A stretch of 64,000 bases of DNA from Candidatus Geothermarchaeota archaeon (GTDB lineage: Archaea; Thermoproteota; Nitrososphaeria; Geothermarchaeales; JDFR-13), in assembly GCA_015523605.1 (NCBI GenBank), contig WAKC01000025.1:10157-74156 (forward strand), given 5' to 3'. How positions within the stretch are numbered: position 1 is the stretch's first letter; every line of letters starts with the position of its first letter. The position numbers and the translations under genes are program-made. This document shows positions 31,765 to 64,000 of this stretch, piece after piece. The notes below the pieces were generated by a model, which saw only the letters and a list, made by a program, of their open reading frames with translations, had not been told where the DNA came from and did not search any database.

Positions 31765-31868
31765 AACTATCCCACCTTGTGCCTCGTATGAAAAGAGGTT
31801 TATATATGACTTATATTAAAACACAATTTATATATTTAACAACTAAACAGAAAGGGTGACCGCCAGAG

Positions 31869-32426: not shown

Positions 32427-32438
32427 AGATTTAGGGGA

Positions 32439-33473: not shown

Positions 33474-33479
33474 CCCAAC

Positions 33480-34082
33480 CTACCCCTTCTTATCAACTAT
33501 AAACTTGGTACGCACGAATTCGGATAACTCCTCCTCCATAATCCGTTCCTCGATGTATCTAATAAGGTCTTGATAAGAAGGAATTATAATTTTCTGGAGT
33601 GCGTTAACCTTCCTCGCTGTATTCATAAGGTCATATGCCAATGCCTCAATCTTATTTTCTATAATTGCTACTTCAAGCATCTCCATGAAGACTTTATAAA
33701 ACTCATTTGCAACTTCCTTCACAACCAAGTTCGGTATAGACTCTACACTAGGAGGCTCCACTATCTCTACATCATATTCCTCAATACCCATTACTAGATG
33801 CCTATGAAGCCTAGTCTTCATCTTAGAGACAACCATAGAGGCTGAGGTGAATTCCTCATGCCCTACATTTACCAGGGCCTTGACAAACTTCGTATACGTC
33901 TCCATAATCTTCTTCTCTGCCTCCTCCCTCTTACCTAATTGACCCAGATATTTATTAAGCTCACTTGCGACCTTATCACGCTTCATCTCAAGAATCTCAG
34001 TACTCTTCTTAATAAATTGGAGTTGTTTCCTAGCCTCTAGTAATGCGCCTCTGCTGGCTGATACACCCATTATAGAACTCAT
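33480..34082 (-). CDS. atpD: A-type ATP synthase subunit D (central stalk)
   Basis: 200 aa with long N- and C-terminal helices ([27 protein letters not shown] ... ALQKIIIP). It overlaps atpB by 4 nt. Confidence 0.85.
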
Positions 34083-35506
34083 TTCTGGATACCCTCGTAT
34101 GCAGCCTTAGCCTTATAGTAATACTTCTCTATCGTGGACTCTCTAACACGTGTAAGCTCTTCGGGTGGAAGGACACTTAAGACCTCCCAGCCAATGTCTA
34201 GAGTCTCTTCAATCGTCCTGTTTTCATATTCACCCTGGTTAATAAAACGTCTCTCAAAGAGATCAGCAAACTTTAGGAATAATCTCTCCCTATCACTTAA
34301 TCCCATCTCACCAACAATTCTGGCCAAGTCCCTAGCCTTTACACCCCTGGAATAGGCATCATATAACTGGTCACTAAGCTCTTTATGATCATCTCTAGTC
34401 TTACCAGGCCCGATACCACTCCTCATAAGCCTACTCAGACTTGGGAGAACGTTGATAGGTGGATATATACCTCTGGAGTGGAGGTCCTTGCTAAGTATAA
34501 TCTGTCCCTCGGTGATATAGCCAGTTAGATCCGGGATTGGATGTCTCTTGTCTCCACCTGGCATTGTAAGAATAGGCATCTGTGTTAGACTACCCTTCTT
34601 ACCTCTTACAATACCCGCTCGCTCATAGATTGTGGCTAAATCGCTATACATATAACCTGGATATCCACCTCTGCCCGGCACCTCCTCCCTCGCCGCACTG
34701 ATCTCTCTAAGGGCTTCACAATAATTTGTCATGTCAGTTAATATCGCAAGTACATGGTAGTCGAGTTCAAAAGCGAGATACTCGGCGATTGTTAATGCAA
34801 TCCTAGGAGTAATTAACCTCTCGATGGCTGGGTCGTCCGCCAAATTTAATATAACTACACTCCTATCTATAGCTCCCGACTCTCTAAACTGTGAGATGAA
34901 GTAGCTAGCCTCATCATGCTTTAAACCCATTGCTGCGAACACTAGGGCGAAACTCTCCTCTTCACCCAGTATAGTTGCTTGTCTCGCAATCTGAGCAGCT
35001 ACTCTATTGTGAGGTAGTCCAGACTCGGAGAAGATAGGCAGCTTTTGCCCTCTAACGAGGGATAGCATCCCATCAATAGCTGAAATACCGGTCTGGATAA
35101 AGTCATTGGGATATTCTCTCGCTCTTGGATTGATGGGAAATCCATTGATATCCCTTGTATCCTTCGATGAAATCTTGGGTAGACCATCTATAGGCTCGAA
35201 CCTACCATTGAACATTCTACCAACTACATCAGGTGATACGGGAATCTCAAATGTTGATCCTGTAAACTTAACTATCGAATCATGCTGAAGTCCAGATTCA
35301 TCACCAAATACCTGGGCAATAACGTAATCTCTACTCACCTCAATAACTCTTCCCAGGCGATCTATACCATCTGGAGCCCTTATACGGATAATTTCATCGA
35401 ATACAACTCCCGGTATCGGGTCAAGTACTACAAGAGAGCCCCTTATCTCACGGATCCCTCTGTATATCTTCCCATACAAATCAGATATCTTTACAGGAAT
35501 ACCCAT
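34079..35506 (-). CDS. atpB: A-type ATP synthase subunit B (non-catalytic)
   Basis: High-identity A/V-type B motifs ([30 protein letters not shown]) with no canonical P-loop Lys. Confidence 0.95.
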
Positions 35507-35518
35507 TCAAACCACCTC

Positions 35519-37339
35519 CTAAAACGATATCGAGACTCTATACTCCTCCGCTATGGAGGAGAGAGCCTCCCTAATCTCATTTAATAGATCCACTATAGCA
35601 TCAAACTTCCTCTCATCTAGCTTGGCCCTCTTAATCCTACTAACTATCGGTGACTCAATTATCCTGTCTATAGGCACATTCTCCCTAACAAGTTTCTCAG
35701 CTAATCTATGGAAATCTATAATCGCCTTCAAAATAAGTATTGAACGCTCAGGCTCTGAATATGAATCTACAGGATCGAATGCATTCTGTCTTAACAGACC
35801 CTCCTTAATAAGCTCGTTAGTAAGAAGTAGAAGCCTCTGATCATCTGGTAAGGCCTTCTCACCTATAATCTTAGCTATAGACTCTACCTCACTAGCGTTT
35901 GTCAAGATATTCATAGCCTCCACTCTATAACTGGGATATTCCTCCTTAACATTTGGCCATACATCCTTTAGCCTAGGATTGTTCTCAACAGCCTTTTCCA
36001 CATACCCACCTATTATAGCTTCTGCATAAAGACTATAGCTTTTCAGCCAATGTATTGATGGGAAGTGTCGACTATATGCTAGATCGGCATCTAAAGCCCA
36101 GAATACACCTGTAAATCTAAGTGTATGTGTAGTAACAGGCTCGTTAAAATCACCACCAGGCGGGGACACCGCTCCAACAACAGTTACAGATCCTATTCTC
36201 TCAGGCCTACCCAATACCTTAACCCTTCCAGCTCTTTCATAGAACTCTGCTATCTTATCCGGTAGATAAGCTGGGAATCCCCTCTCTACAGGCATCTCAC
36301 CTAGCCTACCAGAAATCTCTCTAATAGCCTCAGCCCATCTAGAGGTTGAATCAGCCATGAGAGATACATCATAACCCATATCTCTATAATACTCGGCGAT
36401 TGTAATACCTATGTATACACTGGCCTCTCTAGCCGAGACTGGCATGTTACTTGTATTTGCAATTAGAACGGTTCTCTCCATAAGGGGTCTACCAGACCTT
36501 GGGTCCTGAAGCTCTGGGAATTCTGTAAGGACTTCAGCCATCTCATTACCCCTCTCACCACATCCAATGTATACCACGACATCTGTATCGCTCCACTTAG
36601 CAAGCTGATGGAGGGTTACAGTCTTACCCGTTCCGAATCCGCCTGGTATACAGGCTGCTCCACCCTTGGCTACTGGGAAGAGTACGTCTATAACCCTCTG
36701 GCCAGTAATCAATGGTGTGGTGAGCGGGAGCCTACCACCTGGCTGGACAGGCCTAGCTATCTTAACCGGCCATTCATGATACATATATAGATTCTTCTCT
36801 TCACCATTAACCTCTACAACGCCTATCGGCTCTTCTATCTTAAATTCTCCCTCATATATCTCCTTCAACACACCGCTCATATTAGGGGGTATCATAATCT
36901 TATGGACAAGATATTCCGTTTCCTTCACCTCACCAACTATATCTCCAGGGCCAACCTCTATCCCAGCCTCTACAGTGGGCTTAAACTCCCATTTTATATC
37001 TCTCGGTAACATATAGGCCTTGATACCTCTAGAGATAAACGGACCACTCAGTTTAATCAGGTCCTCCAGAGGCCTACCAATACCATCAAAGATATTCATG
37101 AGAAGTCCAGGACCCAACTCAGCCACCAACTTCTTACCAGTTCCAAAGACGGGGTCTCCCACCCTTAGCCCACTAGTAGGCTCGTATACCTGGGCAGCAA
37201 AATCTTCCTCAAATACACGAATTACCTCTCCAATAAGCCTATCCTCACCAATCTCTACAACCTCACCAACCTCAATATCTGGGATACCCCTTCCAAATAC
37301 AACTGTTCCACTTACCTTTACAATCTCACCCTGCCTCAT
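35519..37339 (-). CDS. atpA: A-type ATP synthase subunit A (catalytic)
   Basis: Has the P-loop PGGFGTGKTV, the non-homologous insert typical of A subunits, and GERGNEM, MADSTSRWAEALREISGRL-like motifs. Confidence 0.96.
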   Translation of the reverse strand: MRQGEIVKVSGTVVFGRGIPDIEVGEVVEIGEDRLIGEVIRVFEEDFAAQVYEPTSGLRVGDPVFGTGKKLVAELGPGLLMNIFDGIGRPLEDLIKLSGPFISRGIKAYMLPRDIKWEFKPTVEAGIEVGPGDIVGEVKETEYLVHKIMIPPNMSGVLKEIYEGEFKIEEPIGVVEVNGEEKNLYMYHEWPVKIARPVQPGGRLPLTTPLITGQRVIDVLFPVAKGGAACIPGGFGTGKTVTLHQLAKWSDTDVVVYIGCGERGNEMAEVLTEFPELQDPRSGRPLMERTVLIANTSNMPVSAREASVYIGITIAEYYRDMGYDVSLMADSTSRWAEAIREISGRLGEMPVERGFPAYLPDKIAEFYERAGRVKVLGRPERIGSVTVVGAVSPPGGDFNEPVTTHTLRFTGVFWALDADLAYSRHFPSIHWLKSYSLYAEAIIGGYVEKAVENNPRLKDVWPNVKEEYPSYRVEAMNILTNASEVESIAKIIGEKALPDDQRLLLLTNELIKEGLLRQNAFDPVDSYSEPERSILILKAIIDFHRLAEKLVRENVPIDRIIESPIVSRIKRAKLDERKFDAIVDLLNEIREALSSIAEEYRVSISF

Positions 37340-40461: not shown

Positions 40462-43146
40462 ATGACACTAGACCGATTTATTAAGCAAAGTAATAAGACA
40501 AAAAAGAAAGATGAATATAGAGAAGATTCTATAAATAAAAATAGAGTATCTAAACAGATAGAGGTTGAAACATCTTCAAATAATTCCTCAAATGAAGAAG
40601 GTAGAGATAGAGAAATACCAGATAATTTGGAGACAAGATTTGAAGACAATGTATACATGCTTGTATCCGCTAATTACAGCTCTTCAGATAACAAACCGTA
40701 TCTCCTCTTTTATGACGTTAAAAACCATCGAATAATAAAGTGGATGGACATAACCGACCACCATCCATATGCCTATTCAAAGGAACCTTTAGAAAAGCTT
40801 GAAAGGCTACCTCTCATCATAGAACGTATGAACAAACAACAGATATTGGGACTCCGAACCGAAGAAAAGATAGATCCTCTGTCTGATAGAAAGATTACAG
40901 TTACTAAGATAATAGTCAGAGATCCACTTATCATAGGTGGTAGAGCGGACTCTTTAAGGGAGCAGATTAAACTGTGGGAGGCCGATATCAAGTATTATGT
41001 AAATTATATAATGGATTTAGGTTTAGAAGTCGGGTCATACTACTTCTTCGACGCAGACGGGATACCCCGTCGATACATAATCCAGCCATCTAAAGAGATT
41101 AGAGAGGCGATGGAGAAACTCAATGAAGAGGAGAGGAAGTGGCTTGAGAGACTCGCAGAACCAGTAGTAGATTTTAAAAGGATAGCCTTAGACATAGAAG
41201 TATATAATCCAAGAGGTGTAATGCCACAACCAGAAAACCCTGAACACCCCATATTCATTGTCTCACTATGCGGATCAGACGGGGTAAAAAGAGTCCTTGT
41301 ATATGATCTAAGGGGGGATATGCCTAAGGAGGGTATCAAGAGCGATAAATTCGAGGTTGAGGTTTTTGAAAATGAGATAGAATTGATAAAGAGAACATTA
41401 GATATAATACGTGAATACCCGATTCTAATTACCTTCAACGGAGATACATTCGATTTGCCATATATCCTAGCTAGATCCTTGAAACTCGGATTTAAGGAGA
41501 TTAGAGATTATATTGAAAGAGGGAGGAATGAGATACGGATAACATGGGGAATACACATTGACCTATACAAGTTCTTTAAGAACGTGTCGATAAAGACATA
41601 TGCCTTCTCAGGAGCATACGATATTATCAGTTTAGACTCGATAGCAAGGGCCTTGCTAAATAGGGGTAAGATGGAGACGCCTGGACATTTCGACGATATG
41701 TCTATGGAAGAGATAATCGAATATGGCTTTACAGACGCTGAGTTAACACTCGAACTTACACAATTCAATGACAACCTAGTAATGAGATTAATCACTATTA
41801 TAGCACGGATATCCAATATGACTCTGGATGATGTTACAAGACTATCTGTTTCAAACTGGATTAGAAATAGAATGTTCTACCTACATAGAAGCAAAAAATA
41901 TCTAATACCGAGGTCAGATGAGATAAGGGAAAAGAAATGGGGTAGACATTTCCAGCCAGTAACTAAAGGAAAGAAGTACGTCGGAGCATTGGTTATAGAT
42001 CCTAAACCAGGGGTTCACTTCAATGTAGTTGTTGTTGACTTTGCAAGCCTATATCCCTCCATCCTAAAGGAGTATAACATCTCCTATGAGACTGTTAACT
42101 GTCCCCATGAGGAGTGTAGAAACAATCTGGTCCCAGAGACTACCACCTGGATCTGCACAAGGAAGAGAGGTTTGATAAGTGAATTTGCAGGTATAATTAG
42201 AGATATAAGGGTGAATGTATTCAAGAAGCTAAGTAAAGATAAAACTATATCGAAAGATAGGAGGGAATTCTATGGAGTAATCCAAAGAGCTTTGAAAGTC
42301 ATTATAAACGCTCTCTATGGCGTTATTGGTGCAGACACCTTCCAATTCTATTATCTACCAGCTGCTGAGGCGGTAACAGCATATGGTAGATACGTAATTA
42401 AAAAGGCTATTGAAAAGGCTGAAGAGCTTGGCCTAGAGGTCATCTACGGAGATACGGACAGTCTGTTCATAAAGAATCCTGATATGGATAAGTTGGAGTT
42501 ACTAATTGAGAGCATAAGGAAAGAGTATAGACTACAGTTAGAGGTGGACAAGATATATAAATATGCTGTATTAAGCAGTCGAAAGAAGAACTACTTCGGT
42601 CTAACATCTGAAGGTATAATCGATATAAAGGGTTTAATGGGTAAGAAAAGCAATACACCACCCTTCATTAGAGAAGTCTTTTACAGAATTTTGGATAAAT
42701 TGAGGACTGTAGAGAATATTGAACAGTTTAAAATGGTTAGGAAAGACATTATAGAAATAATTAGAGATGCAGAGACTAAACTCATAAATAAAGAGGTTCC
42801 ACTAGAAGAGTTAGTAATTACGGTCACCCTATCAAAATACACCGACCAATATACAAAGACAACCCCTCAACACGTGAAAGCAGCTAGAAAACTTGAGAGA
42901 GCATTTGGGATTAAGCTACAACCGGGGCACATGATAAGAATAGTTAAAACCAGAAACAATGACGGAGTTGCTCCAATAGAGCTTGTAAAATCTATAGACC
43001 AGATAGATAGCAAAAAATATATCGAGCTGTTACACTCAACTCTGGAGCAGATCTTAGAAGTTCTAGATATTAAGGTTAATAAGGGGAAAAAGGTTGTAAT
43101 GGTAGACGAGCGTAAAGTGAGTCTAGATAAGTTCTTCAAATTCTAA
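40462..43146 (+). CDS. polB: family-B DNA polymerase (crenarchaeal PolB1/Dpo1-like), no intein
   Basis: Contains Exo I IALDIEV, Pol A VVDFASLYPSI, Pol B KVIINALYGVIG and Pol C YGDTDSLF. A low-complexity N-terminal extension of about 60 aa is present. Confidence 0.95.
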   Translation: MTLDRFIKQSNKTKKKDEYREDSINKNRVSKQIEVETSSNNSSNEEGRDREIPDNLETRFEDNVYMLVSANYSSSDNKPYLLFYDVKNHRIIKWMDITDHHPYAYSKEPLEKLERLPLIIERMNKQQILGLRTEEKIDPLSDRKITVTKIIVRDPLIIGGRADSLREQIKLWEADIKYYVNYIMDLGLEVGSYYFFDADGIPRRYIIQPSKEIREAMEKLNEEERKWLERLAEPVVDFKRIALDIEVYNPRGVMPQPENPEHPIFIVSLCGSDGVKRVLVYDLRGDMPKEGIKSDKFEVEVFENEIELIKRTLDIIREYPILITFNGDTFDLPYILARSLKLGFKEIRDYIERGRNEIRITWGIHIDLYKFFKNVSIKTYAFSGAYDIISLDSIARALLNRGKMETPGHFDDMSMEEIIEYGFTDAELTLELTQFNDNLVMRLITIIARISNMTLDDVTRLSVSNWIRNRMFYLHRSKKYLIPRSDEIREKKWGRHFQPVTKGKKYVGALVIDPKPGVHFNVVVVDFASLYPSILKEYNISYETVNCPHEECRNNLVPETTTWICTRKRGLISEFAGIIRDIRVNVFKKLSKDKTISKDRREFYGVIQRALKVIINALYGVIGADTFQFYYLPAAEAVTAYGRYVIKKAIEKAEELGLEVIYGDTDSLFIKNPDMDKLELLIESIRKEYRLQLEVDKIYKYAVLSSRKKNYFGLTSEGIIDIKGLMGKKSNTPPFIREVFYRILDKLRTVENIEQFKMVRKDIIEIIRDAETKLINKEVPLEELVITVTLSKYTDQYTKTTPQHVKAARKLERAFGIKLQPGHMIRIVKTRNNDGVAPIELVKSIDQIDSKKYIELLHSTLEQILEVLDIKVNKGKKVVMVDERKVSLDKFFKF

Positions 43147-43147
43147 G

Positions 43148-44554
43148 CTATACGAAGCTGGCTCTCTTCGACAGGAATTTATCAATGTATAGACGTTCTT
43201 TCGGATATCCAGCCAATTCCTTCTCAAGAAGTCCAATAAATTCCTCGATAGTGAGAACTAGGTTTTCCCCATCTCTAGTCCTCACACTCAATTTCTCCTC
43301 AGCTACCTCTTTATCCCCAATAACCACTATATATGGTATCCAGAAGGATTCGGCGTCCTTGATCTTCCTACCAACCGTGGCATCCCTGTCATCTATATCG
43401 ACCCGTATCATCTTCGACTCCAAGTTCTCAAGAACTTTTATAGCATAATCTAGGTTCCTCTCAAGGTTTACCGGTATTATTCTGACCTGAATGGGGGATA
43501 GCCAAGTTGGGAGTCTAGGTTTTATACCTCTACGCTCCATCTTAGCGGCTTCCTCTAAAAACTCGAATAGAAAACGCTCTAGACTTCCATGTATAGCCGT
43601 ATGGAGAATGACCGGATGCTTCTTAGAACCGTCTTCATCCACATATGTAATGTTAAATCGCTCTCCATTACCCACATCTATCTGGACAGTCGCGGTTTCA
43701 ACCGGCCGACCCGTAGAGTCAATATAGTGAAATTCTACATTCAACACCCAATAATATTTTCCGCTCTCAACAGTATGTATGAGAACCGGCTTCCCTTCCA
43801 ATTCAACTAGAGACTTTATAAATTCAAAATTATTTTTTAGAAACTCGGGATCTATGTTATACAGACTATAGTATTCCCATCCAAACTTTCGTCCCTCATC
43901 AAGAATCAACTTATACAACCTGTAGAACTCCTCCTTCGCCATTTCTATGTCTTTCGTGAGTACATGCATATCAGGCATGAAAAATCTTCTAACCCTAGTA
44001 AGCCCAGTCAATTCACCCCTCTGCTCATATCTATAGCTATCAGCCAACTCAAACACTCTTAAAGGCAAGTCCTTATAAGAAATATATTTTCTACTAAGCA
44101 TCGCAAATTGACCGAAACAAGCGGCATATCTCAATACAAATTCACGTTTCCCCGGCTTGACTTTATACATCCTCTGGCCAAAGAGAGAAGCATGTTTCTT
44201 GATTGGAGGACTACCTAAGTCATACATGATAGACGTTACAACTGGATAAGCACCGAGATTAAGGACAACATTAGTGGAATACCTCTTTAACAAGTCGATC
44301 ATCAAAGCCCCATTAGGAAGGTAGGATAGATGACCAGCATCACTAAGAGGCTCGTTATCGGCAATCCTCAGCTTCGTTAAATATCTGATATGTGGCGACT
44401 CCTCCCTTGCAACTGACTTGGAGAATACCTCTCTATCTAGAAGCCTCTGGAAATTATCATCTCCACCATCAAACTCGTCTGCAAAATAGAGTTTCCCATC
44501 GAAATCCAGGACGTAAAATTCGTTTTCAAAGACATCGGAAAGGCTGATAGACAT
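43148..44554 (-). CDS. thrS: threonyl-tRNA synthetase, catalytic form lacking the N-terminal editing domain (ThrRS-cat type)
   Basis: Class II core (SYRYEQRGELTGLTRVRRFFMPDMH) plus a C-terminal anticodon-binding domain (IQVRIIPV ... IPYIVVIGDKE). It is about 468 aa, versus roughly 620 aa for full-length archaeal ThrRS. ATG 44554 is preceded by GGAGGTG. Confidence 0.88.
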   Translation of the reverse strand: MSISLSDVFENEFYVLDFDGKLYFADEFDGGDDNFQRLLDREVFSKSVAREESPHIRYLTKLRIADNEPLSDAGHLSYLPNGALMIDLLKRYSTNVVLNLGAYPVVTSIMYDLGSPPIKKHASLFGQRMYKVKPGKREFVLRYAACFGQFAMLSRKYISYKDLPLRVFELADSYRYEQRGELTGLTRVRRFFMPDMHVLTKDIEMAKEEFYRLYKLILDEGRKFGWEYYSLYNIDPEFLKNNFEFIKSLVELEGKPVLIHTVESGKYYWVLNVEFHYIDSTGRPVETATVQIDVGNGERFNITYVDEDGSKKHPVILHTAIHGSLERFLFEFLEEAAKMERRGIKPRLPTWLSPIQVRIIPVNLERNLDYAIKVLENLESKMIRVDIDDRDATVGRKIKDAESFWIPYIVVIGDKEVAEEKLSVRTRDGENLVLTIEEFIGLLEKELAGYPKERLYIDKFLSKRASFV

Positions 44555-44751
44555 CAGCCCCACCTCCACCTCTCTAACTTCCTCTCCCTCTTAGTAGCCT
44601 TCTTATACTCCTTCCAATGCTTTTTACAGAGCTTGACCCTCCTCTTACCAGTCAATTGACCGCCAAAGACCTTAGATGCATCTTCGAAAGAGAGGGATTT
44701 GTAGCCCGGCTCCCCACAATCTTTTATACTACATACTTCTTTGCTAGACAA
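44554..44751 (-). CDS. 65-aa basic protein with CX4C...CX2H putative zinc site
   Basis: The sequence is MSSKEVCSIKDCGEPG...VKLCKKHWKEYKKATKRERKLERWRWG. Its stop overlaps the thrS ATG in the arrangement TGATG. Confidence 0.55.
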   Translation of the reverse strand: MSSKEVCSIKDCGEPGYKSLSFEDASKVFGGQLTGKRRVKLCKKHWKEYKKATKRERKLERWRWG

Positions 44752-44872: not shown

Positions 44873-45472
44873 ATGAGAAGGATGTTAAACAAGCTGAGGA
44901 AGAAAATATCGAAATATAATGAATTTTCAGCTCAAAAGATTGAAAAAACTGGTTTGTCTCCCTCCACTATTACCTTACTTGGGTTCATAACTACTATATC
45001 CTCTATAATACCCCTCATATATTTTCCTGAGCCCTTGAAATATCTCCTATTTATAGCGGTAATCCTGCTGGCCGGATACATGGATATGTTAGATGGAGCG
45101 CTAGCAAGATATACAGGACAAGTATCTAAAAAAGGTGCATTTACAGATTCTACTCTAGATAGGATAACCGATACCGTTATAGTTATTTATCTCTATATAG
45201 GAGGGATAACGTATAACACGCTTCTATTGATACTTCTTGTATCTACATCTATCCTAATATCTTATGTAAGAGCCAGGGCCGAGGCTCTAGGCCTTAATAT
45301 GCAAGGGATAGGCTTAATGGAGAGAGCAGAGAGGATATTGTTCATCCTATCTGCAATATTGGTTGGAAAAATTCTTAACCTCATAGATATAGACATCCTA
45401 CTTTGGGTACTTGTAATCCTAAACATAATAACAATAGTACAGAGAATATCATATACACTTAAGAACATGTAA
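44873..45472 (+). CDS. CDP-alcohol phosphatidyltransferase family protein (archaeal lipid head-group synthase)
   Basis: The signature D-G-x2-A-R-x8-G-x3-D-x3-D is present as DMLDGALARYTGQVSKKGAFTDSTLDRITD, and the protein has 5-6 TMs. Confidence 0.88.
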   Translation: MRRMLNKLRKKISKYNEFSAQKIEKTGLSPSTITLLGFITTISSIIPLIYFPEPLKYLLFIAVILLAGYMDMLDGALARYTGQVSKKGAFTDSTLDRITDTVIVIYLYIGGITYNTLLLILLVSTSILISYVRARAEALGLNMQGIGLMERAERILFILSAILVGKILNLIDIDILLWVLVILNIITIVQRISYTLKNM

Positions 45473-46874
45473 ATTGGAAAATTCTTTTAGTCTCACCTAA
45501 AGCCCTGAAACTAAGTTTATCTACTTTTATGACCACAGGCATATCTGAAACGACATTACCCAGTATCAAACACGACCCCCGATTTATATCCTTAACTATC
45601 GACTTCACAGTATCCGTATCAACAGCTGAGATCCGCGAAAGCACCTCAAGATCCTTATCATTAAGGAATCTGAAGATGAAAATATTATCAAGTTGCCGGA
45701 AAATCATATGCCCAAGAGAATCTGGTTGGTTAGTTATAAATATCATAAACAATCCGAAATGCCTCATCCTCGTAACTACATCCTCCCAATAGGTATCCCT
45801 GACATATAGATGTGCCTCTTCTGCGAATAAGAAGAATGGTGGGATCACATTCTTCTCAAGTAGTTTAGAGAGTTTACTTAAAAGGATCTCCACTAAGATC
45901 TTCTTCTCTACCGATGATAAATCCCTAAGATTTATTATATAGCCCTTCACTCCATCCCTGAACATATTATTTAGGTCTAATGTAGTGCTCTCCCCGATAA
46001 AACGACATGACTTTAGTGCATTCAACCTATGTATGATAGCATCTTTCACCATCAAGTTTTTGATGTATAGATTAGTGATTCTATCAAGTAGATCCAAAGT
46101 TATTTTTTCGTTTCTATTCCTGGCTATGTCCCATACCTCTCCAAATAGATTTACAGATACACTAGGGAGACCTAATATATTGGTAAACACGTTGATTAAA
46201 GTCTCCTTACCAAGATATTCGATGTCGAATATGAAGTTTTTACCTGGTTCTAGAACAATGATGCCGTCCTCTTCAGAAAGGCCTAGATACTCACTATTTA
46301 TATCCAGTATTATAAATCTCGCTCCAAGCTTCGAAAAATGATATGCAAGAAGCTTTGCAAGATGAGATTTTCCACTCCCCTTCATTCCTGTGATCAGAGT
46401 TAGTGAACCGTCGAGATGGAAAGCATCCACAATAAACTCATTCCCAGACATATCCCTTCCCAGTCTAACGGGATACATAACCTCGCCTCGGACCATATTC
46501 AAAAGTTGGTTTGGGGAGATCCTATAAATTTCAGAGGAAAGTCTAGATGGGAGATCATCAATGAAATTTATAAGTTTACCATTTTTAACTGCACCACGGA
46601 TTTTACATTTTAATATTTTGATATCATTGATCAGTGATGTTACCCTATCATACTTGCCTCCTCCATCTATGTAGATACTATCTCTAAACAACCCCTCTCT
46701 TATCACATCCTCCAGTAGGCCAGGTACTTCGATATATTCGAAATCAATAACCTGCACAATAAGACCTAGCTCCTTTGATTCGTCCATAATCATTAGATAG
46801 TCTCCTTTATGCACTGTTTCGCCAGGATATGCTACAACCTCTATAAGCTCTCCATCCTTTCTAAAAAGTTTCAT
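45459..46874 (-). CDS. HerA/FtsK-superfamily ATPase (DUF87-type, HerA paralogue)
   Basis: Shows an N-terminal HAS-barrel-like region (GELIEVVAYPGETVHKGDYLMIMD...GLIVQVIDFE), Walker A ITGMKGSGKSHL and Walker B FFLFAEEAHLY. ATG 46874 is preceded by GGAGGG, and the tracked GTG start is at 46883. Confidence 0.8.
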   Translation of the reverse strand: MKLFRKDGELIEVVAYPGETVHKGDYLMIMDESKELGLIVQVIDFEYIEVPGLLEDVIREGLFRDSIYIDGGGKYDRVTSLINDIKILKCKIRGAVKNGKLINFIDDLPSRLSSEIYRISPNQLLNMVRGEVMYPVRLGRDMSGNEFIVDAFHLDGSLTLITGMKGSGKSHLAKLLAYHFSKLGARFIILDINSEYLGLSEEDGIIVLEPGKNFIFDIEYLGKETLINVFTNILGLPSVSVNLFGEVWDIARNRNEKITLDLLDRITNLYIKNLMVKDAIIHRLNALKSCRFIGESTTLDLNNMFRDGVKGYIINLRDLSSVEKKILVEILLSKLSKLLEKNVIPPFFLFAEEAHLYVRDTYWEDVVTRMRHFGLFMIFITNQPDSLGHMIFRQLDNIFIFRFLNDKDLEVLSRISAVDTDTVKSIVKDINRGSCLILGNVVSDMPVVIKVDKLSFRALGETKRIFQFTCS

Positions 46875-47865
46875 GCATACCACCCTCCAGAGGACCTATA
46901 ACTGCTGATCTATGAGTAATCGAGGATTTAATAGAGCCACCCATCTCCATAATTACTCTATAGAGACCCAAAACATCCCTATACTTCAATTTAGATACTG
47001 TGTGGGCCTCAATCAATACACTAGGATAACCGAATCCATTCGATGGAAGGGAATAAATAACATTGAGATATGATGAAGGAGTATTACTCGAAATATCTAC
47101 TCTAAACGGCATGCCACTCTTAACGTTAAAATACCCTACAAAAGTCGAAGAAATATGATTCAACCTATCAACCTTAACAAAACCATCAACCCCAAACTTC
47201 TTTAGATAAATCATGGTCTCAAAATACTTCTTTATTAATCTACTCCTCTTAGACACCCCCACAATTCCTACTGAATTCTGGTGCAACGCGCCTAAAAGTT
47301 CATTATAAAGATGCCTTCTTAATATGGGCGATTCTATCGCGCCATCAATGAGGAGGATATCATACCCTCCATAATTTACCAATTCATTTAAAATGTTGAA
47401 CTCATAAATCGTCACAAGAATCTTTTTAGCTATATATGTATCATAGATAGATGAGAATAGACTGTTCAAACCTAGTCTTACATATCTATGTAGATATTTT
47501 ACGACCTCCGGAGTGTAATAGACGAGTGTTGGCCCATACACCTTAATAGAGTAACTATCGTCTCCAGCATCGAATACTACAGCTGCACCCCTGACAGCGT
47601 AGAGGATTCCTTTTACCGATTCGGCTATAGGAATAATAGAGGTATCTATCCCTACCACCTTAATATTATTTACATCGACCTTCTCAAGTTTCATAACGTC
47701 TAAATCGATCTCAACATCAATAGAATTCACATCGAAGAGTGGGAAATACGACATCAACCTCCTGGGCAACCGCGTAATAAACTCGCTCTTTCTCACATAA
47801 TCTAAGGAGAGCTCTGCAACCTCGTCAAACGTTGGAAGGCGTTCTTTAGTTTTTTGAAATTTCAT
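46861..47865 (-). CDS. NurA-domain nuclease-like protein
   Basis: Motifs occur in NurA order: VVGIDTS, YEFNILNE, ILLIDGAI, VGVSKRS and GYPSVLIEAH. Its 3' end overlaps the HerA-like start by 14 nt. Confidence 0.7.
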   Translation of the reverse strand: MKFQKTKERLPTFDEVAELSLDYVRKSEFITRLPRRLMSYFPLFDVNSIDVEIDLDVMKLEKVDVNNIKVVGIDTSIIPIAESVKGILYAVRGAAVVFDAGDDSYSIKVYGPTLVYYTPEVVKYLHRYVRLGLNSLFSSIYDTYIAKKILVTIYEFNILNELVNYGGYDILLIDGAIESPILRRHLYNELLGALHQNSVGIVGVSKRSRLIKKYFETMIYLKKFGVDGFVKVDRLNHISSTFVGYFNVKSGMPFRVDISSNTPSSYLNVIYSLPSNGFGYPSVLIEAHTVSKLKYRDVLGLYRVIMEMGGSIKSSITHRSAVIGPLEGGMHETF

Positions 47866-47895
47866 AACTCTTCATGAATATTATTGAACAATACT

Positions 47896-47908
47896 GATAT
47901 TTAAATAT
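47896..47908. promoter_or_regulatory. palindromic TATA-like element (atatttaaatat) shared by divergent genes
   Basis: A perfect 12-bp palindrome lies in the 68-bp spacer. It is about 31 nt from the NurA-like ATG (47865) and about 27 nt from the plus-strand ATG (47934). Coordinates may be off by 1 nt. Confidence 0.45.
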
Positions 47909-47933
47909 TTCTTTTGACAAATTTTATGTTAGG

Positions 47934-48323
47934 ATGAGTGGTGAAGATAATATTAAAGTGAGGATGAGGGTTGGGGATATGGAACTAGAGATTGAGGGGC
48001 CACCTGAGAAGATTTCCCATGTTATTTCCCAGATAATGGGTAATGTGGGAGTTTCTACAGAGAAGAAGGAAGTGGATAAAATTCCGGGAAAGTCTTGTAA
48101 AGAGATTATAGAGGACTTATGGAGAGAGGGTTGGTTTTCACAGGAGAGAAGATTAGCAGATGTATATAGGGAATTGACTGTGAGAGGATATAATTTTGAC
48201 AAGAGCGCCATATCACATGCATTATCAGCTCTAACTAAAGAGGGTATATTAAGGAGGGTTGGTAGGGAAAGGAAGTACAGGTATATCCAAAAATATCCAT
48301 ATAAGCAGGTGGTTCGAGATTAA
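47934..48323 (+). CDS. two-module protein: N-terminal short beta-beta-alpha module plus C-terminal winged helix (paralogue 1 of 3)
   Basis: The N-terminus is IKVRMRVGDMELEIEGPPEKISHVISQI. The C-terminus GWFSQERRLADVYRELTVRGYNFDKSAISHALSALTKEGILRRVGRERKYRYI follows an H2-turn-H3-wing pattern. Confidence 0.65.
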   Translation: MSGEDNIKVRMRVGDMELEIEGPPEKISHVISQIMGNVGVSTEKKEVDKIPGKSCKEIIEDLWREGWFSQERRLADVYRELTVRGYNFDKSAISHALSALTKEGILRRVGRERKYRYIQKYPYKQVVRD

Positions 48324-48330
48324 AAACGGG

Positions 48331-48816
48331 CTAACTCAATTTATTCATGACATATAGTAGACCTCTAACTGTAATCCTGTATTTCGTATGTTTATTTTCA
48401 CGCATTTTTTCAATGTATCCCTGACTTCTTAATTCACTCAGTCTGGAGGACACTGACTTTTGAGAGGAAGAAAGTATTTTTGAGAGTTCATCTAGGGTTG
48501 ATGCGTCACTCTCTCTATGTCCAGCATCGTATAATATCTTCATCAGCGACAGAGTAACTAATATTTTAAGATGCATCGATAGGGAAGAGGCCTTCTCCAT
48601 TAAGTAAATACTTCCATCGTTTGTGGTTTTTATATATTCAGATATAACCTCCGAAAGTTCTAGGTAATCTGGATCTTGGAAGAGTTTCACTGCTACATCA
48701 AAGCCTGGGATGTTACGGTTTAACCATTCAAAGACCTTTTTCGAGACTTCTTTTGGGCTACCTCTAAACTCAACCTCAAGACCCTCATATTTAATACGTA
48801 CTTCTAAGTCCTTCAA
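48331..48816 (-). CDS. two-module protein, paralogue 3 (divergent) of the same family; MarR-like wHTH at the C-terminus
   Basis: The N-terminus is LEVRIKYEGLEVEFRGSPKEVSKKVFEWL and the C-terminus is STLDELSKILSSSQKSVSSRLSELRSQGYIEKMRENKHTKYRIT. The TTG start immediately follows the TAG of the upstream paralogue. Confidence 0.6.
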   Translation of the reverse strand: MKDLEVRIKYEGLEVEFRGSPKEVSKKVFEWLNRNIPGFDVAVKLFQDPDYLELSEVISEYIKTTNDGSIYLMEKASSLSMHLKILVTLSLMKILYDAGHRESDASTLDELSKILSSSQKSVSSRLSELRSQGYIEKMRENKHTKYRITVRGLLYVMNKLS

Positions 48817-49281
48817 CTACTTCTCACCTATCACTGGCGTAGATGTTACATACTTGAATACTCCATCCTTACCTTTAATTCTTCTTAAAACACCTTTTTC
48901 AACCATCCTCTTGAGGGTGACGGCTATAGTGCTTTTGGGATAGTATAGACCAAACATAGTAAGTGTGTCCATAACCTCACGAAGACTTCTAGGGGTCCTT
49001 CCCCATCCACTATAAAACATTTTATTAAGGATATCCGCTAGACTGTCGGAAGATGATATCTTTATATTGGGAATATCATCATAGGATGCTTCATCAACGG
49101 CTTTCTTCGTTTCTTCTTTAGATTCGACTAATTCTTTGGAGGGAGATATATGTTGCGACACTTGGAATCTATCCAAGATCTTATTAAGAAATTCTTCAAC
49201 AACCTCTTTTTCACCTGTAATTTCAAGCTCTAAAGACCTATTACCATATTTATAAACTAGTTTAAGAGATACGTTACTCAT
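48817..49281 (-). CDS. two-module protein, paralogue 2 of the same family
   Basis: The N-terminus is LKLVYKYGNRSLELEITGEKEVVEEFLNKIL and the C-terminus is GWGRTPRSLREVMDTLTMFGLYYPKSTIAVTLKRMVEKGVLRRIKGKDGVFKYV. Its ATG overlaps the gatE stop by 8 nt. Confidence 0.65.
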   Translation of the reverse strand: MSNVSLKLVYKYGNRSLELEITGEKEVVEEFLNKILDRFQVSQHISPSKELVESKEETKKAVDEASYDDIPNIKISSSDSLADILNKMFYSGWGRTPRSLREVMDTLTMFGLYYPKSTIAVTLKRMVEKGVLRRIKGKDGVFKYVTSTPVIGEK

Positions 49282-51169
49282 TAATCAACTCCTCCACAAT
49301 ATTAACTACAATCTTTGCGTCTATTAAGCCTCTATATCTCTCCATAGCTATACCGATTAACCTTTTCTTCCTAATATTCGGCGGTAAACTTGAAATGTCG
49401 CTCCTTTGGTTTAACACCTCCCTCAAATAATTCTTCACCTCTTCCACCGACACCTTCTCAGATTTATATTTTTCGATGGACTCCTCGACGGATATACCTT
49501 TGCATACATTTTTAAGAATCTCTTCTATAGATTCTTTAACTATATCTCCATCGCTCAATGCTTTGAAAATTTTCTGGAATACTTCCTCATTGATCTTAGA
49601 GATGTCATATCCTTCCCTCTCTAAAGCTTTGGGGATACTTACTAGTACATGATAGATATATCCACTACCCACCATCTCACCATATTCTTCAAACAATTTT
49701 ATGAAGAGGTCTACCAAATCACTATCCAGAAGCTCTTCTGCCATATCATTCGATAACCCAAACCTCTCTCTCAACATGGAGAGAGTCTCCTCAGGCTCTA
49801 CAATTCTTATCTTAGAAACGTTTTTAAGCAACTCTTGGTCTACCACTATAGGTGGGATATCCGTCTCAGGATACATCCTAGCCATACCTGGCCTCGGACG
49901 CATATAGTAGGTTTTACCGTCTTCAGTGGCACCTCTCGTTTCATAGGGCACTCCTGCGAAGGCTTCCACGATTCTTTCTATTATTTTATCACGTATCAAT
50001 GGGAGTTGATCATCATTGAATAATCCAATCATGATAAACGCATCTCTATCACTCAGATTTAAGAGAGACCCCACTTTATCAACCTCATTTATGGAGATCC
50101 CGTAATTAGGAAGTTCATCGCTATGGAAGAGTCCTGTTATCCCCGTCCAGAATCTAATTCTCTCTAGGATCTCCCTCGCAAAAGTTTTATCTACGATTTT
50201 ATATCCTAGAAATCCTTTGAACCCGGAGATTTTTAGAGCATAGAAACGCCCCCCTCGATTCAAGATACGTCTAACAATTCTTGACTGTGAAGTAGCTAAT
50301 GCCTCTGAGACATCCATAAAATCTGAAACCTCAAGGGAATCGGGTGTTAACCCTGATTTAATAAGTAAATCTTTTAATTCAAGTAATTTAACATGGCGAT
50401 TAAATTCATAATCGACTACCTTCCCAAGGGTATCTAGCTTCTGAATCCCCTTAATCTCAACAATAGTGCCATTCATGATGGATATATTAACATCTTGTCT
50501 TACGCTTCCAAGTCCTGGCCTTTTATAACCTGTGGATCTGACTAGTCGACCGATATACTGAGCAACTTTAACGGCCTCCTCTGGAGAATTAATATCTGGT
50601 GCTGTGGCAACCTCTATAAGGGGAATACCCAGTCTATCCAGGCTATAAACTACTTTATCTTGCTTTCTATCAATAAGTCTAGCTGCTTCTTCCTCCACTG
50701 TAATTGTTTGTACCCCATATTTCTTACCATCCAGTGAGAAACTACCATCATAAGCTACTACAGCTGTACGCTGGAATCCAGTGGTGTTAGAACCATCTAC
50801 AACGATTTTCCTCATAAACTGGATCTCATCAACTATCTTCATATCGAAGAATTTTGCAAGCCTTATAGCAACTTCTATTGACTTTATATCTGGATAGTGA
50901 GGTGGCTCTTCATCTGTCTCCACTAGACAAGTGCTATTGGGAGGAGCGATATACTCGATTATAAGGCCCTTCTCAAACTCAAATAGTGCGGCGGGATCTA
51001 TCTGACCGAGCTCACTCTGTGTAGGACGTAGTCTACGTATTAATCTAATACCTTCTGGTGATTCAGAAAACTCTGGTGGACACTTGCAGAAGAGCTTCCT
51101 ACCTGTATCGAGTTGAAAGTGTATCTCGAGACCGACTTTTAAACCATATTCTTCGTATATGTTCATCAT
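49274..51169 (-). CDS. gatE: Glu-tRNA(Gln) amidotransferase subunit E
   Basis: 631 aa with a GatB/E-like core (GLEIHFQL, CKCPPEF, SLVRQDVNIS-like GSVRQDVNIS) and the archaeal insertion domain. It overlaps gatD by 4 nt. Confidence 0.93.
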   Translation of the reverse strand: MMNIYEEYGLKVGLEIHFQLDTGRKLFCKCPPEFSESPEGIRLIRRLRPTQSELGQIDPAALFEFEKGLIIEYIAPPNSTCLVETDEEPPHYPDIKSIEVAIRLAKFFDMKIVDEIQFMRKIVVDGSNTTGFQRTAVVAYDGSFSLDGKKYGVQTITVEEEAARLIDRKQDKVVYSLDRLGIPLIEVATAPDINSPEEAVKVAQYIGRLVRSTGYKRPGLGSVRQDVNISIMNGTIVEIKGIQKLDTLGKVVDYEFNRHVKLLELKDLLIKSGLTPDSLEVSDFMDVSEALATSQSRIVRRILNRGGRFYALKISGFKGFLGYKIVDKTFAREILERIRFWTGITGLFHSDELPNYGISINEVDKVGSLLNLSDRDAFIMIGLFNDDQLPLIRDKIIERIVEAFAGVPYETRGATEDGKTYYMRPRPGMARMYPETDIPPIVVDQELLKNVSKIRIVEPEETLSMLRERFGLSNDMAEELLDSDLVDLFIKLFEEYGEMVGSGYIYHVLVSIPKALEREGYDISKINEEVFQKIFKALSDGDIVKESIEEILKNVCKGISVEESIEKYKSEKVSVEEVKNYLREVLNQRSDISSLPPNIRKKRLIGIAMERYRGLIDAKIVVNIVEELINE

Positions 51170-52485
51170 CTCGACCTCACAAAGCTCCTCGGAATAATCT
51201 CATTTGCAATGTTTACAGGCATCAACTCGGCCAGGGCATCCTCTCCATAATTTCCTATTACCCAGCTAGCCTTAACATATGCAGTCTCAGACAACATATT
51301 CTCCAAGGGAATTACACCTATTTTCAAAAGTTCTCTGCCAGTATCATACACATTGAGATTTACACGACCCCAGATACATTGAGACGTCATAAAGACCTGA
51401 ATACCAGATCTAATTACATCCTTCAAGACACTAATAACCTTATCTGAAACATGCCCCAGACCCGTCCCCTCAACCACAATCGCTTTATAGTCATTCATAA
51501 AGAACTTGAATATCTCGGGTGACATCCCAGGATAAAACTTGATAAGAGCCACCCTCTTAGAAAATAAGGGTTTAAAATCCAGGGTATCCTCACCACGCCT
51601 CTTTAATGTCAACTCTTCTATAAAATCTTCATAAAGTATTTCAGAGTAGTTTCTAATATACGCGATTGGGGGTACATCGATTGATTGAAATGCAGATCTA
51701 ATGCTTGTATGGTTCTTCCTCACTCTAGTACCTATATGGACAGCGACCAAGTCGTCCGAGGAGGAGTGATGCATAGCCACATAAACCCCAGAATATCTGA
51801 AATTACCAGCTAGATACAATGCTGATAGTAGATTCATGGCCGCATCAGAGCTCGGCCTATCACTGGACCTCTGTGAACCCACTAATATCACAGGTATTCC
51901 AATACCTTTTAGAGCAAAGCTTAAAGCTGCACTTGTATATCCAAGCGTATCCGTACCATGAAGAACTACTATACCATCCCATCTCTCCCTATATGCTTGG
52001 AAGACTTTTTCAGTAATATACTTCCAATCATCTTGGGTTAGATGTTCACTATATTTACTCATTATAATCTCGGTATCAATATCCGCGATATCGAGAACTT
52101 CCGGAATAATATCTATAAGTTCATCTGGATCAACAGCGGATCTCACCCCACCAGTTCTATAATCGACTTTACTAAGTATCGTTCCACCGACAGCTAATAT
52201 CTTAACCCTGGGTAGATCAGATCTTCTACCGCGTCTCTTCCTAATGACTTGGGGAATGCTACTTTCTTCATGATACTCGGCCTTCTCAATCCTACTGATT
52301 TTTGAGATGTGAATTCCTATATTATAACCGCTCTTAAGCTTTAGAATTACCGTCTCTTCATGGGAAAACATGTGTTTCGGCATTAATACACCCTGAAGTT
52401 TAGATCCATCAACCAAATGGATAACCACATAATCTCCATATTTAACTCCAAATTTTTCTAGAAAAAGCTCAGCTAAAGTCTTCAT
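51166..52485 (-). CDS. gatD: Glu-tRNA(Gln) amidotransferase subunit D (asparaginase-like)
   Basis: Carries asparaginase-type motifs GGTILSK and VLHGTDTLGYTSAALSF. Its 439-aa length is typical of GatD. Confidence 0.93.
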   Translation of the reverse strand: MKTLAELFLEKFGVKYGDYVVIHLVDGSKLQGVLMPKHMFSHEETVILKLKSGYNIGIHISKISRIEKAEYHEESSIPQVIRKRRGRRSDLPRVKILAVGGTILSKVDYRTGGVRSAVDPDELIDIIPEVLDIADIDTEIIMSKYSEHLTQDDWKYITEKVFQAYRERWDGIVVLHGTDTLGYTSAALSFALKGIGIPVILVGSQRSSDRPSSDAAMNLLSALYLAGNFRYSGVYVAMHHSSSDDLVAVHIGTRVRKNHTSIRSAFQSIDVPPIAYIRNYSEILYEDFIEELTLKRRGEDTLDFKPLFSKRVALIKFYPGMSPEIFKFFMNDYKAIVVEGTGLGHVSDKVISVLKDVIRSGIQVFMTSQCIWGRVNLNVYDTGRELLKIGVIPLENMLSETAYVKASWVIGNYGEDALAELMPVNIANEIIPRSFVRSR

Positions 52486-58083: not shown

Positions 58084-58752
58084 TTACTCTGGATGGTCAT
58101 GAGTTAACATATATAGAAAACCTGTTATCCCCTTTACCTCAACTAGCTCTCTGAGTCTGATGATAAACGTATCATAGCTTTCATGCCCCACATATAGAAT
58201 AGCATATCCAGTTGCCTCCTGCTCATGCTTTCTAACGTTTCTAATCAAAATCACTGGGATTAGTAGGATATAGATTATAGATGGGATGAAACCTAGAAAT
58301 ATTGGTATTACGACAGATAGTGATATGAGGACGATTCCTAGCAAAACATGTTTCGCCATATGATTATACATTATATGTCCCATCTCATGCGCAAGCAACG
58401 CTTTTTTGCAATTCTCATCCATTTTAGCCAAAGCATCCCTATTTAGCACAATAAACTTCAGCTTCGGTAGAAAACCTACAGACATTCCCGCGTAATTGGC
58501 CGGGATACTCCTTAGAAAGACCGGTGTTCTTCTCCCATACCATGAAGTCCTATTGGTATATTCTTCAGTATATTCATCCCTCAACAGGACCAACATGGGC
58601 TCGACTACTCCCAGGAGTAGTACCATTAAGATTATACTTAATCCTATTATCAAAATAGTTAGTGGGGGTTTAGAAAGAATTAAGTTGAATGCAATATAGA
58701 TGAACACACCTGTATAGAGTCCTGCATATATCATCAGTTTTCTTGGGTTCAT
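58084..58752 (-). CDS. membrane zinc metalloprotease, M48/HtpX-like
   Basis: Has N-terminal and central TMs and the motif LLAHEMGHIMYNH. Its ATG overlaps the stop of the upstream permease gene (ATGA). Confidence 0.65.
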   Translation of the reverse strand: MNPRKLMIYAGLYTGVFIYIAFNLILSKPPLTILIIGLSIILMVLLLGVVEPMLVLLRDEYTEEYTNRTSWYGRRTPVFLRSIPANYAGMSVGFLPKLKFIVLNRDALAKMDENCKKALLAHEMGHIMYNHMAKHVLLGIVLISLSVVIPIFLGFIPSIIYILLIPVILIRNVRKHEQEATGYAILYVGHESYDTFIIRLRELVEVKGITGFLYMLTHDHPE

Positions 58753-61345: not shown

Positions 61346-61463
61346 TTATAAAATAATTACTCCTAGAAAATCTTTAAAATTTTATAATTGGATACTTCAT
61401 AGGTGTAGTATAAGATATTTATATAATCGATGACAAAAAAAGAGGAGGAGGGGTTAAAAAAAG

Positions 61464-63833: not shown

Positions 63834-64000
63834 GCCTCCGCACACCTCAAATGAAATGGTATCAAATATAATTTTTTGGTATCGTCAATTATAAATCTTA
63901 CATCAGCGATATGATTAAATAATATCTTGGTAGAAAGGTTATTCTAAATATATCGTCTTTTGGTTAAATATAATTAAAATATAGTATAACTAAATACATT

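Follow-up and report, generated by a model that had tools for sequence, protein, structure and literature searches.

What holds a nuclease-translocase gene pair of an archaeon together with three small genes for DNA-binding proteins, and what do these proteins do for the pair? The locus that raises this question lies in a 64,000-nt stretch of DNA from a Candidatus Geothermarchaeota archaeon (the window, in whose numbering its coordinates are given). It comprises genes for a NurA-like nuclease and a HerA-like ATPase, and three small genes, named here P3, P4 and P5, whose products contain winged helix-turn-helix (wHTH) domains. A preliminary description of this DNA had seen in the locus a nucleic-acid-targeting machine whose specificity or regulation would be supplied by the wHTH proteins. 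As judged from sequence comparisons, the five genes represent a real and anciently conserved archaeal gene module, in which NurA-HerA is accompanied by a family of small DNA-binding proteins, and at least one of the latter most likely controls the pair through a candidate operator in a shared promoter. The reading that we favour, with a probability of about 0.6, is that of a HerA-NurA machine for the processing of DNA ends that is controlled by a dedicated wHTH protein, P3, which would bind repeats in the shared promoter, with P4 and P5 acting as co-regulators or partners.

The module and its conservation in archaea

All five open reading frames (ORFs) were found where the preliminary description had placed them, and the geometry that it had reported was also found: overlapping nurA and herA, P3 divergent from nurA, and P4 and P5 convergent on P3. 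The herA-like gene (45459-46883, minus strand) encodes a predicted hexameric-translocase-type P-loop ATPase of 474 amino acids (aa) when read from a GTG, and its start is overlapped by the nurA-like gene (46861-47865, minus strand), which encodes the NurA-like nuclease of 334 aa. The true start of herA is probably the ATG at 46874, giving a product of 471 aa, because the database cluster (P0011) has this length and M4 is conserved in the homologues; with this start instead of the GTG at 46883, the nurA/herA overlap decreases from 23 to 14 nt. A divergent control region of 68 bp (47866-47933) separates nurA from P3 (47934-48323, plus strand; the 'D' family), whose product of 129 aa consists of an N-terminal module and a C-terminal winged helix. 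P4 (48331-48816, minus strand) encodes a protein of 161 aa with an N-terminal module and a winged helix, and P5 (48817-49281, minus strand) one of 154 aa.

We collected 91 related loci by exact-protein look-ups and by scanning one genome per species with the HerA-like alignment, and classified their ORFs with iterated hidden Markov models (HMMs). The lineages represented were Geothermarchaeota, Nitrososphaerales, Conexivisphaerales and Bathyarchaeia. The closest relatives were metagenome-assembled genomes (MAGs) that bear the labels Geothermarchaeota, 'Thermoprotei archaeon SZUA-1514' and uncultured Nitrososphaeria, which places the window with Geothermarchaeota-like archaea (Nitrososphaeria in GTDB) and outside the classical Thermoprotei. 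NurA was encoded directly upstream of HerA in 90 of the 91 loci and members of the small-protein family were present in 84 of the 91, bearing out the proposal that the genes constitute a conserved module. A small gene was divergent from nurA in 66/81 loci, with a median gap of 68 bp. The order gatD-gatE-P5-P4-(P3 on the opposite strand)-nurA-herA recurred in Geothermarchaeota-like archaea, Nitrososphaeria, Conexivisphaerales and Bathyarchaeia with different outer flanks, and is probably ancestral.

The set of small genes varied between lineages. Nitrososphaera retains P4 and P3, some Nitrososphaeria have P3 alone, and in some Bathyarchaeia the divergent gene is missing and two to four P4-like genes run in the direction of nurA-herA. 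The copy number of co-directional small genes ranged from 0 to 4, so that the triplication of a DNA-binding partner, as the preliminary description had put it, is not a fixed feature. An apparent exception without small genes (L088) was found to contain a P3-like N-terminus interrupted by masked Ns. When the window was compared with Bathyarchaeia and Nitrososphaerales, identity was 37-39% for P3, 40% for HerA and 40-41% for GatE, and 25-30% for NurA, P4 and P5; by this measure, P3 is the most conserved small partner of NurA-HerA.

The small proteins had been described as three paralogues. This stands for P3 and P5, which are paralogous over their full length (BLASTP 2e-12), but not for P4, which has in common with them only the N-terminal module of about 35 residues (family-level hhalign E 1.3e-5, 37 columns) and whose wHTH is of a different, MarR/ArsR-like type. 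In the AlphaFold2 model of P3, a beta-hairpin and a helix (residues 7-36) were predicted with low confidence (pLDDT 50-58). Beyond a linker without order, residues 55-119 were modelled as a winged helix (pLDDT 71-81) with three helices and a two-stranded wing. The best Foldseek match of this model was the HOP2 winged-helix domain 2mh2 (E 9e-3, TM 0.81 on the target) and the others were DNA-binding regulators of the MarR, Fur and ArsR types, all of the matches being weak (E about 0.01). No curated family reached its cut-off with P3 or P4 in searches of Pfam, NCBIfam, PADLOC, PHROGs and PDB, which gave generic sub-threshold wHTH matches: the best Pfam match of P3 was MCM_C (25.7 bits, cut-off 27), and P4 matched many wHTH models at 1e-3 to 1e-4, all of them below cut-off. 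P5 scored 22.7 bits against Pfam Penicillinase_R, whose cut-off is 22.6.

A profile search showed that the P3 family comprises 1764 clusters at 90% identity, including NVIE_013310 of N. viennensis and NTE_02726 of Ca. N. evergladensis; among the matches listed, all were called 'hypothetical protein' or were unnamed and none had a Pfam domain. The P4 family was also conserved across lineages. P3 was not filed under the Hop2/Mnd1 (TBPIP) recombination mediators, in which long, heterodimer-forming coiled coils come after the wHTH, because its matches to HOP2, including an HMM match to 4y66_B (E 0.13), cover the wHTH only; no coiled coil was predicted in P3.

A candidate operator between P3 and nurA

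The P3-nurA intergenic regions (44 unique regions) contained TGnnCA hexamers, often in the form TTGnnCAA, which were enriched 33-fold with respect to the whole loci and whose spacing was exactly 9 bp in 48/67 cases. Triple arrays of this hexamer occurred 25 times in 1.5 Mb (loci plus window), where 0.08 were expected by chance, and all 25 were at the P3/nurA junction. Double arrays numbered 112 at the junction and 42 elsewhere, about 22 being expected by chance overall, and a search of the loci for a wider regulon showed none of the 42 off-junction arrays in a clearly intergenic, promoter-like position. The double array is a palindrome, TTGTTGnnCA-nnn-TGnnCAACAA, that directly abuts a TATA-like box, and many loci had two such palindromic units, including loci in which P3 is the sole small gene.

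A divergent P3 gene borders 60 unique junctions, 57 of which had arrays, as against one of the nine junctions that lack this gene (Fisher p = 1.7e-7, a value that overstates the independence of the cases because losses of the P3 gene may be few). The sole array-positive junction without a divergent P3 was that of L088, in which the P3 gene is masked. These arrays constitute, on comparative evidence, a conserved candidate operator in the shared promoter that co-varies with the divergent P3 gene. Regarding the alternative left by the preliminary description, in which the wHTH proteins supply specificity or regulation, this co-variation argues for regulation.

The clade of the window has a derived layout, TTCAATA…TTCATGAA, in which the palindromic TATA-like box ATATTTAAATAT (47897-47908) is followed, on the minus strand, by TGTTCAATAATATTCATGAA (47871-47890), an operator-like element located directly upstream of the nurA ATG and ending 5 nt before it. 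The TATA, TTCAATA and TTCATGAA blocks were invariant in nine Geothermarchaeota-type loci and their flanks drifted. Even with as many as 3 mismatches allowed, the palindromic element TGTTCAATAATATTCATGAA had no further occurrence in the window; in the other lineages, 9-bp-spaced TGnnCA arrays occupied the same place. The TATA box of archaeal promoters is located about 26 nt upstream of the start site. With this standard geometry, P3 and nurA could both be transcribed from the palindromic TATA, and TGTTCAATAATATTCATGAA would lie over the start site of nurA.

We propose that P3 would bind the repeats beside the shared TATA box, that is, the 9-bp TGnnCA arrays or, in the window, TGTTCAATAATATTCATGAA, and would autoregulate its own gene together with nurA-herA, a control whose sign we infer. 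P4 and P5 would probably bind P3, or share its partner, by means of the N-terminal module, and in the genome of the window they would be expressed from the gatDE operon. The operon under control would encode the HerA-NurA machine of the Nitrososphaeria/Bathyarchaeia branch of the Thermoproteota, a ring-type HerA translocase coupled to the DEDH nuclease NurA, and by analogy with the complexes of Sulfolobus, Pyrococcus and Thermococcus the pair would unwind and resect DNA ends.

This arrangement resembles that of the MarR, ArsR and BlaI autoregulators, since a small winged-helix gene lies head-to-head with the operon that it would control and palindromic or tandem candidate operators overlap or abut promoter elements; P5, in addition, is just at the cut-off of the Penicillinase_R family. 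The small proteins differ from these regulators in that P3 and P4 remain under every curated family cut-off, in that they bear an extra conserved N-terminal beta-beta-alpha module, and in their unusually deep conservation across classes, with several paralogues per locus and no evident ligand-binding domain.

Two loci deserve separate mention. The P3 gene of a Conexivisphaerales MAG (L011, 6455-6832) is split into ORFs of 64 and 59 aa, either by a frameshift or by a sequencing error, and the operator-like repeats and the rest of the module are intact there. A contig labelled as a Krumholzibacteriaceae bacterium MAG (L040, DATKLC010000078.1) holds the archaeal P3-NurA-HerA module with the TGnnCA operator and is probably mis-binned.

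A divergent HerA-NurA pair

The profile HMM search that had been suggested for the pair placed both proteins in named Pfam families above the cut-offs, in agreement with their preliminary assignment: the HerA-like protein matched DUF87 (8.7e-12, 46 bits, cut-off 23.2) and the NurA-like protein matched NurA (24.4 bits, cut-off 21) over positions 2-253 of the 254 of the profile. In 56 homologues of the HerA-like protein, the Walker A motif G-x-K-G-S-G-K-S (G166, K168, G171, K172, S173) and the Walker B motif A-E-E-A-H (A354-E355-E356-A357-H358) were invariant, as were further motifs. Its family profile was collinear, from end to end, with residues 32-470 of Sulfolobus HerA 4d2i (E 2e-15). The AlphaFold2 model reached a pLDDT of 87 and had 4d2i_B as its top Foldseek match (E 3.4e-23, TM 0.75/0.77, identity about 15%) and the HerA-NurA complex of T. 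kodakarensis (9x1m) as its second, and it predicts the domain architecture of HerA, with an N-terminal beta-barrel (strands at residues 4-50 and 89-122), a RecA-like core and a C-terminal region. The NurA-like family profile matched Sulfolobus NurA 2ygk (E 1.2e-6) over a stretch that includes the GYP..L..AH motif, and H288 aligned with the AH of this motif; D74, E155, D174 and H288, the predicted catalytic residues of an RNase H-like site, did not vary among 24 diverse sequences, and their conservation in the full set of 91 was 96-98%.

The HerA-like protein gave partial matches to many HerA models and remained below the cut-offs of the NCBIfam equivalogs for HerA of double-strand break repair (NF040937 and NF040819; 36.8 and 21.7 bits, cut-offs 800 and 970). 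Because matches in family, fold and catalytic motifs were obtained alongside scores far below the equivalog cut-offs, the two enzymes are true but strongly diverged members of the HerA and NurA families, and the HerA-like protein is best classed, from these profile scores, as a distinct and divergent HerA subfamily.

Compared with the canonical systems (Sulfolobus HerA 4d2i and NurA 2ygk, and T. kodakarensis 9x1m), the pair has in common the two-gene organisation with overlapping ORFs, the same length and domain order of HerA (N-terminal barrel, RecA-like core, intact Walker A and B), the top structural and profile matches to the Sulfolobus HerA, and the D-E-D-H residues and GYP..L..AH motif of NurA. 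It differs from them by its very high sequence divergence, by its location outside any mre11-rad50 operon, and by the one to five dedicated small wHTH genes and the candidate operator that accompany the module. To our knowledge, neither dedicated small wHTH genes nor a conserved operator are known for canonical HerA-NurA.

That mre11 and rad50 are not beside the pair had been claimed before and was borne out: neither Mre11 nor Rad50 was detected among the window ORFs of at least 250 aa scanned against Pfam (ten additional large ORFs), nor was Rad50 among the four window ORFs of at least 650 aa. The canonical clustering of mre11-rad50-herA-nurA was not seen in the large ORFs of the window or in the locus flanks that were examined. 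The gene table of Ca. Nitrosocaldus cavascurensis contains a single NurA (NCAV_1103), which adjoins HerA (NCAV_1104) and is close to atpF (NCAV_1107), and a second, lone HerA (NCAV_1723); its mre11 and rad50 are NCAV_1257 and NCAV_1258, about 150 genes away from the NurA-HerA pair (PMC5797428). The proximity of NCAV_1103/1104 to atpF resembles the synteny with A-ATPase genes observed in the window. Since Nitrosocaldus has one annotated NurA, located beside HerA, and mre11/rad50 elsewhere, gene order suggests that the pair of the window is not an extra paralogue but the HerA-NurA that these archaea normally have, separated from mre11-rad50. It is doubtful, then, that an additional pair exists beside a canonical one, and, judging by Nitrosocaldus, the situation that the preliminary description had set against its own proposal, an only HerA/NurA pair with relocated mre11/rad50, may be the real one.

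Alternative readings, surroundings and significance

Additional information on the small proteins came from an HMMER search with the P3 family over 1.84 billion representatives. Three mutually divergent proteins, P0309, P0310 and P0328 (encoded at L093 8001-9500, L095 1640-3079 and L096 5684-7336), consist of a HerA/FtsK-like P-loop ATPase without the N-terminal HAS barrel, a coiled coil and a C-terminal P3-type wHTH bearing the signature TCK…LW.EGWF. P0309 was 44% identical to P3 of the window (BLASTP 2e-20), P0310 matched DUF87 (9.6e-10) and CedD (1.6e-11), and P0309, P0310 and the HerA of the window all matched phrog_2666, a HerA-like 'terminase large subunit' family. The contigs of the three genes are rich in ORFans, also carry HNH and DNA methylase genes, and resemble viruses or plasmids; the products may be ATPases for packaging or transfer that contain their own domain for DNA recognition. 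The P3-type wHTH was also found fused to unrelated N-terminal domains in P0324 and P0389, for which reason it appears to act as a general DNA-binding module. An IMG/VR pattern scan with the P3 family gave no match.

Several observations weigh against P3 being the regulator of the pair, or being only that. The arrays could instead be bound by P4 or another factor, or belong to the P3 promoter itself; the eight loci without a divergent gene may represent few independent and phylogenetically clustered losses; and the repeat of the window is degenerate, with one canonical hexamer and, at a spacing of 10 bp, a second copy that has one mismatch. The conservation of P3 equals that of HerA and far exceeds that of NurA, an unusual pattern for a regulator of purely local action. 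The two enzymes are highly diverged from the characterised ones (HerA, 36.8 bits for an NCBIfam cut-off of 800), so that their biochemical activity is extrapolated. Finally, three unrelated proteins of mobile elements join a P3-type winged helix to a HerA/FtsK-like ATPase, and P4-like genes lie within the nurA-herA operon in some Bathyarchaeia that have no divergent gene; these two facts together indicate a physical role with the ATPase beyond the control of transcription.

The main rival explanation is built on these last points. It holds that the small proteins are mainly subunits or adaptors of HerA-NurA, docked on HerA or NurA by the N-terminal module. Their winged helices would bring the translocase-nuclease to DNA or orient it there, in analogy to the FtsK gamma domain or the wHTH of Streptomyces TraB, and would act on their own promoter only secondarily, as autoregulators. 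Besides the ATPase fusions, which can be taken as Rosetta-stone proteins, and the P4-like genes co-operonic with nurA-herA, it can call on the N-terminal module common to all three small proteins and on the HerA-like degree of conservation of P3. However, the candidate motif was confined to the promoter of the module itself in 1.5 Mb and was not dispersed as a guide sequence would be, the fusions occur in virus- or plasmid-like contexts with a different, barrel-less ATPase, and the same type of wHTH is attached to unrelated domains. We consider this explanation possible, at odds of about one in four, and it does not exclude the regulator model: the small proteins would be wHTH regulators that may also be adaptors, and P3 is a candidate autoregulator and/or HerA adaptor.

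A bolder version, which we regard as unlikely and somewhat more so than the preceding one, supposes that the HerA-NurA translocase-nuclease is guided by sequence or structure and that the small proteins are its detachable subunits for DNA recognition, with the beta-beta-alpha modules seated on the HerA barrel or on NurA and the winged helices loading or orienting the machine, by analogy with FtsK gamma and TraB. The gamma domain of FtsK and the C-terminal wHTH of the Streptomyces plasmid protein TraB are DNA-recognition modules that guide translocases of the FtsK-HerA superfamily. The likeness to them lies in the covalent fusion of a P3-type wHTH to an FtsK-HerA ATPase in P0309, P0310 and P0328 and in the short candidate target repeats of 6-8 bp. 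In contrast to them, the wHTH of the window forms, together with an N-terminal module, a protein of its own, and the repeats are present only in its own promoter, neither dispersed in the manner of KOPS nor located in a clt-like transfer locus; no homology to FtsK gamma was detected. If this version were true, Nitrososphaeria and Bathyarchaeia would have a targeted device for DNA processing or segregation unknown in other archaea, and viruses or plasmids of these hosts would have copied its principle by fusing a P3-type wHTH to their own HerA-like ATPase.

It could also be argued that P5 and P4 belong with gatDE or tRNA metabolism and that their proximity to nurA-herA is inherited synteny. In the window, the ATG of P5 overlaps the stop codon of gatE by 8 nt (ATGAGTAA, 49274-49281) and the TTG start of P4 comes directly after the TAG stop codon of P5 (48814-48819), so that gatD-gatE-P5-P4 would form one unit of transcription and translation; P5 and P4 are, as read from these junctions, translationally coupled to gatE in the operon of the Glu-tRNA(Gln) amidotransferase, whose genes gatE (49274-51169, minus strand) and gatD (51166-52485, minus strand) are housekeeping genes. 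Furthermore, 65 loci had 4 kb or more of upstream flank, and in 45 of these gatE preceded the small genes, the gap often being -32 to +26 nt; the tRNA-related genes ELP3 and ProRS are recurrent neighbours. This linkage, persistent and frequent, was nevertheless not constant. Small proteins accompany NurA-HerA where gatDE is absent from the flanks (e.g. L019, L024, L027, L052, L073, L075, L079 and L080, the last five with P4-like genes and no gatDE in about 7-10 kb of flank), P4-like genes are part of the nurA-herA operon in L037, L056, L062 and L078, and they remain upstream of nurA in L070 and L087, in which gatDE is downstream of herA. Because they are kept where gatDE is absent or downstream, the small proteins follow NurA-HerA and not gatDE, which is also the outcome of the gene-neighbourhood check proposed at the outset. 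P5, moreover, is a full-length paralogue of P3 and P4 has the N-terminal module of P3, and we regard this explanation as improbable.

Least probable of all, at about one chance in twenty, is the conflict or anti-phage system on a HerA chassis (as in Sir2-HerA, DUF4297-HerA and MADS) to which the preliminary description had alluded, with NurA as effector and the wHTH proteins as sensors or regulators: the best PADLOC match of the ATPase was indeed mad8 (1.6e-17), followed by several anti-phage HerA models, and anti-phage HerA complexes scored close to canonical HerA in Foldseek, but these matches reflect the shared HerA fold, PADLOC gave nothing for the NurA-like protein nor Sir2 or DUF4297 for its neighbours, the nearest structure is the DNA-repair HerA of Sulfolobus, and the module is nearly universal in four lineages and syntenic with gatDE, ELP3, ProRS, PolB and the A-ATPase. 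Its base composition is unremarkable, the GC content being uniform across the region, the only tRNA of the window is 33 kb away, and no integrase or mobile-element gene was found among the Pfam labels of the flanks. The likeness to the anti-phage systems (Sir2-HerA/Nezha, DUF4297-HerA and mad8 of MADS) is thus limited to the HerA fold and the corresponding PADLOC matches; lacking a Sir2 or DUF4297 effector, the module is part of the chromosomal core and not an island, and we rejected the defence system as a candidate.

Regarding the surroundings of the module, ELP3, gatDE and ProRS, all tRNA-related, recur next to it across classes, and we know of no functional link between it and them. Directly upstream of ProRS in the window is an ORF of 65 aa, rich in Cys and Lys (44554-44751, minus strand), with a CxxC … CxxH pattern and a very basic C-terminus; a gene of 64-66 aa has the same position in L004, L007 and L009. 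The rest of the window contains housekeeping genes (308-1444, 12333-12409, 29824-37339, 40462-43146 and 58749-63845), among them those for Topo VI subunit A, tRNA-Gly(TCC), subunits of the A-type ATP synthase, a family B DNA polymerase and an Opp-type ABC transporter. An ORF of 385 aa (7825-8982, minus strand) had no Pfam match at E 1e-5 or better. On a Nitrososphaera-type contig (L092, 1-7506) the module adjoins a P-II gene, with Hel308/Hjm, MCM and a GINS-like (Sld5) gene a few kb further, a neighbourhood of replication and repair; in N. viennensis the P-II gene NVIE_013340 is three locus-tag steps from NVIE_013310, consistent with the arrangement of L092.

No dedicated regulator of HerA-NurA is known to us. 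Our search of the literature accessible to us likewise found none, nor any paper describing the module, the wHTH association, the operator or the fusions, and in the papers on ammonia oxidisers HerA-NurA was only named among recombination genes. The complex is regarded as essential in thermophilic archaea, according to a statement of Grogan 2015 in the form in which PMC5797428 cites it. HerA-NurA itself is thus already known; what appears to be new is its constant link to an unnamed wHTH family, the candidate operator and the fusions.

These results correct the annotation of the pair, which corresponds to a distinct HerA/NurA subfamily uncoupled from mre11-rad50, and make a large unnamed protein family the constant companion of this divergent pair across ammonia-oxidising and related archaea, including the cultured Nitrososphaera viennensis (NVIE_013310). 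Together with the fusions of the same wHTH to HerA-like ATPases and with a candidate operator that is precisely predicted (TGnnCA, repeated with a spacing of 9 bp beside the TATA box), this family makes the control of recombination or repair genes in these abundant archaea directly testable by simple DNA-binding and pull-down experiments. A guided translocase-nuclease becomes conceivable as well.

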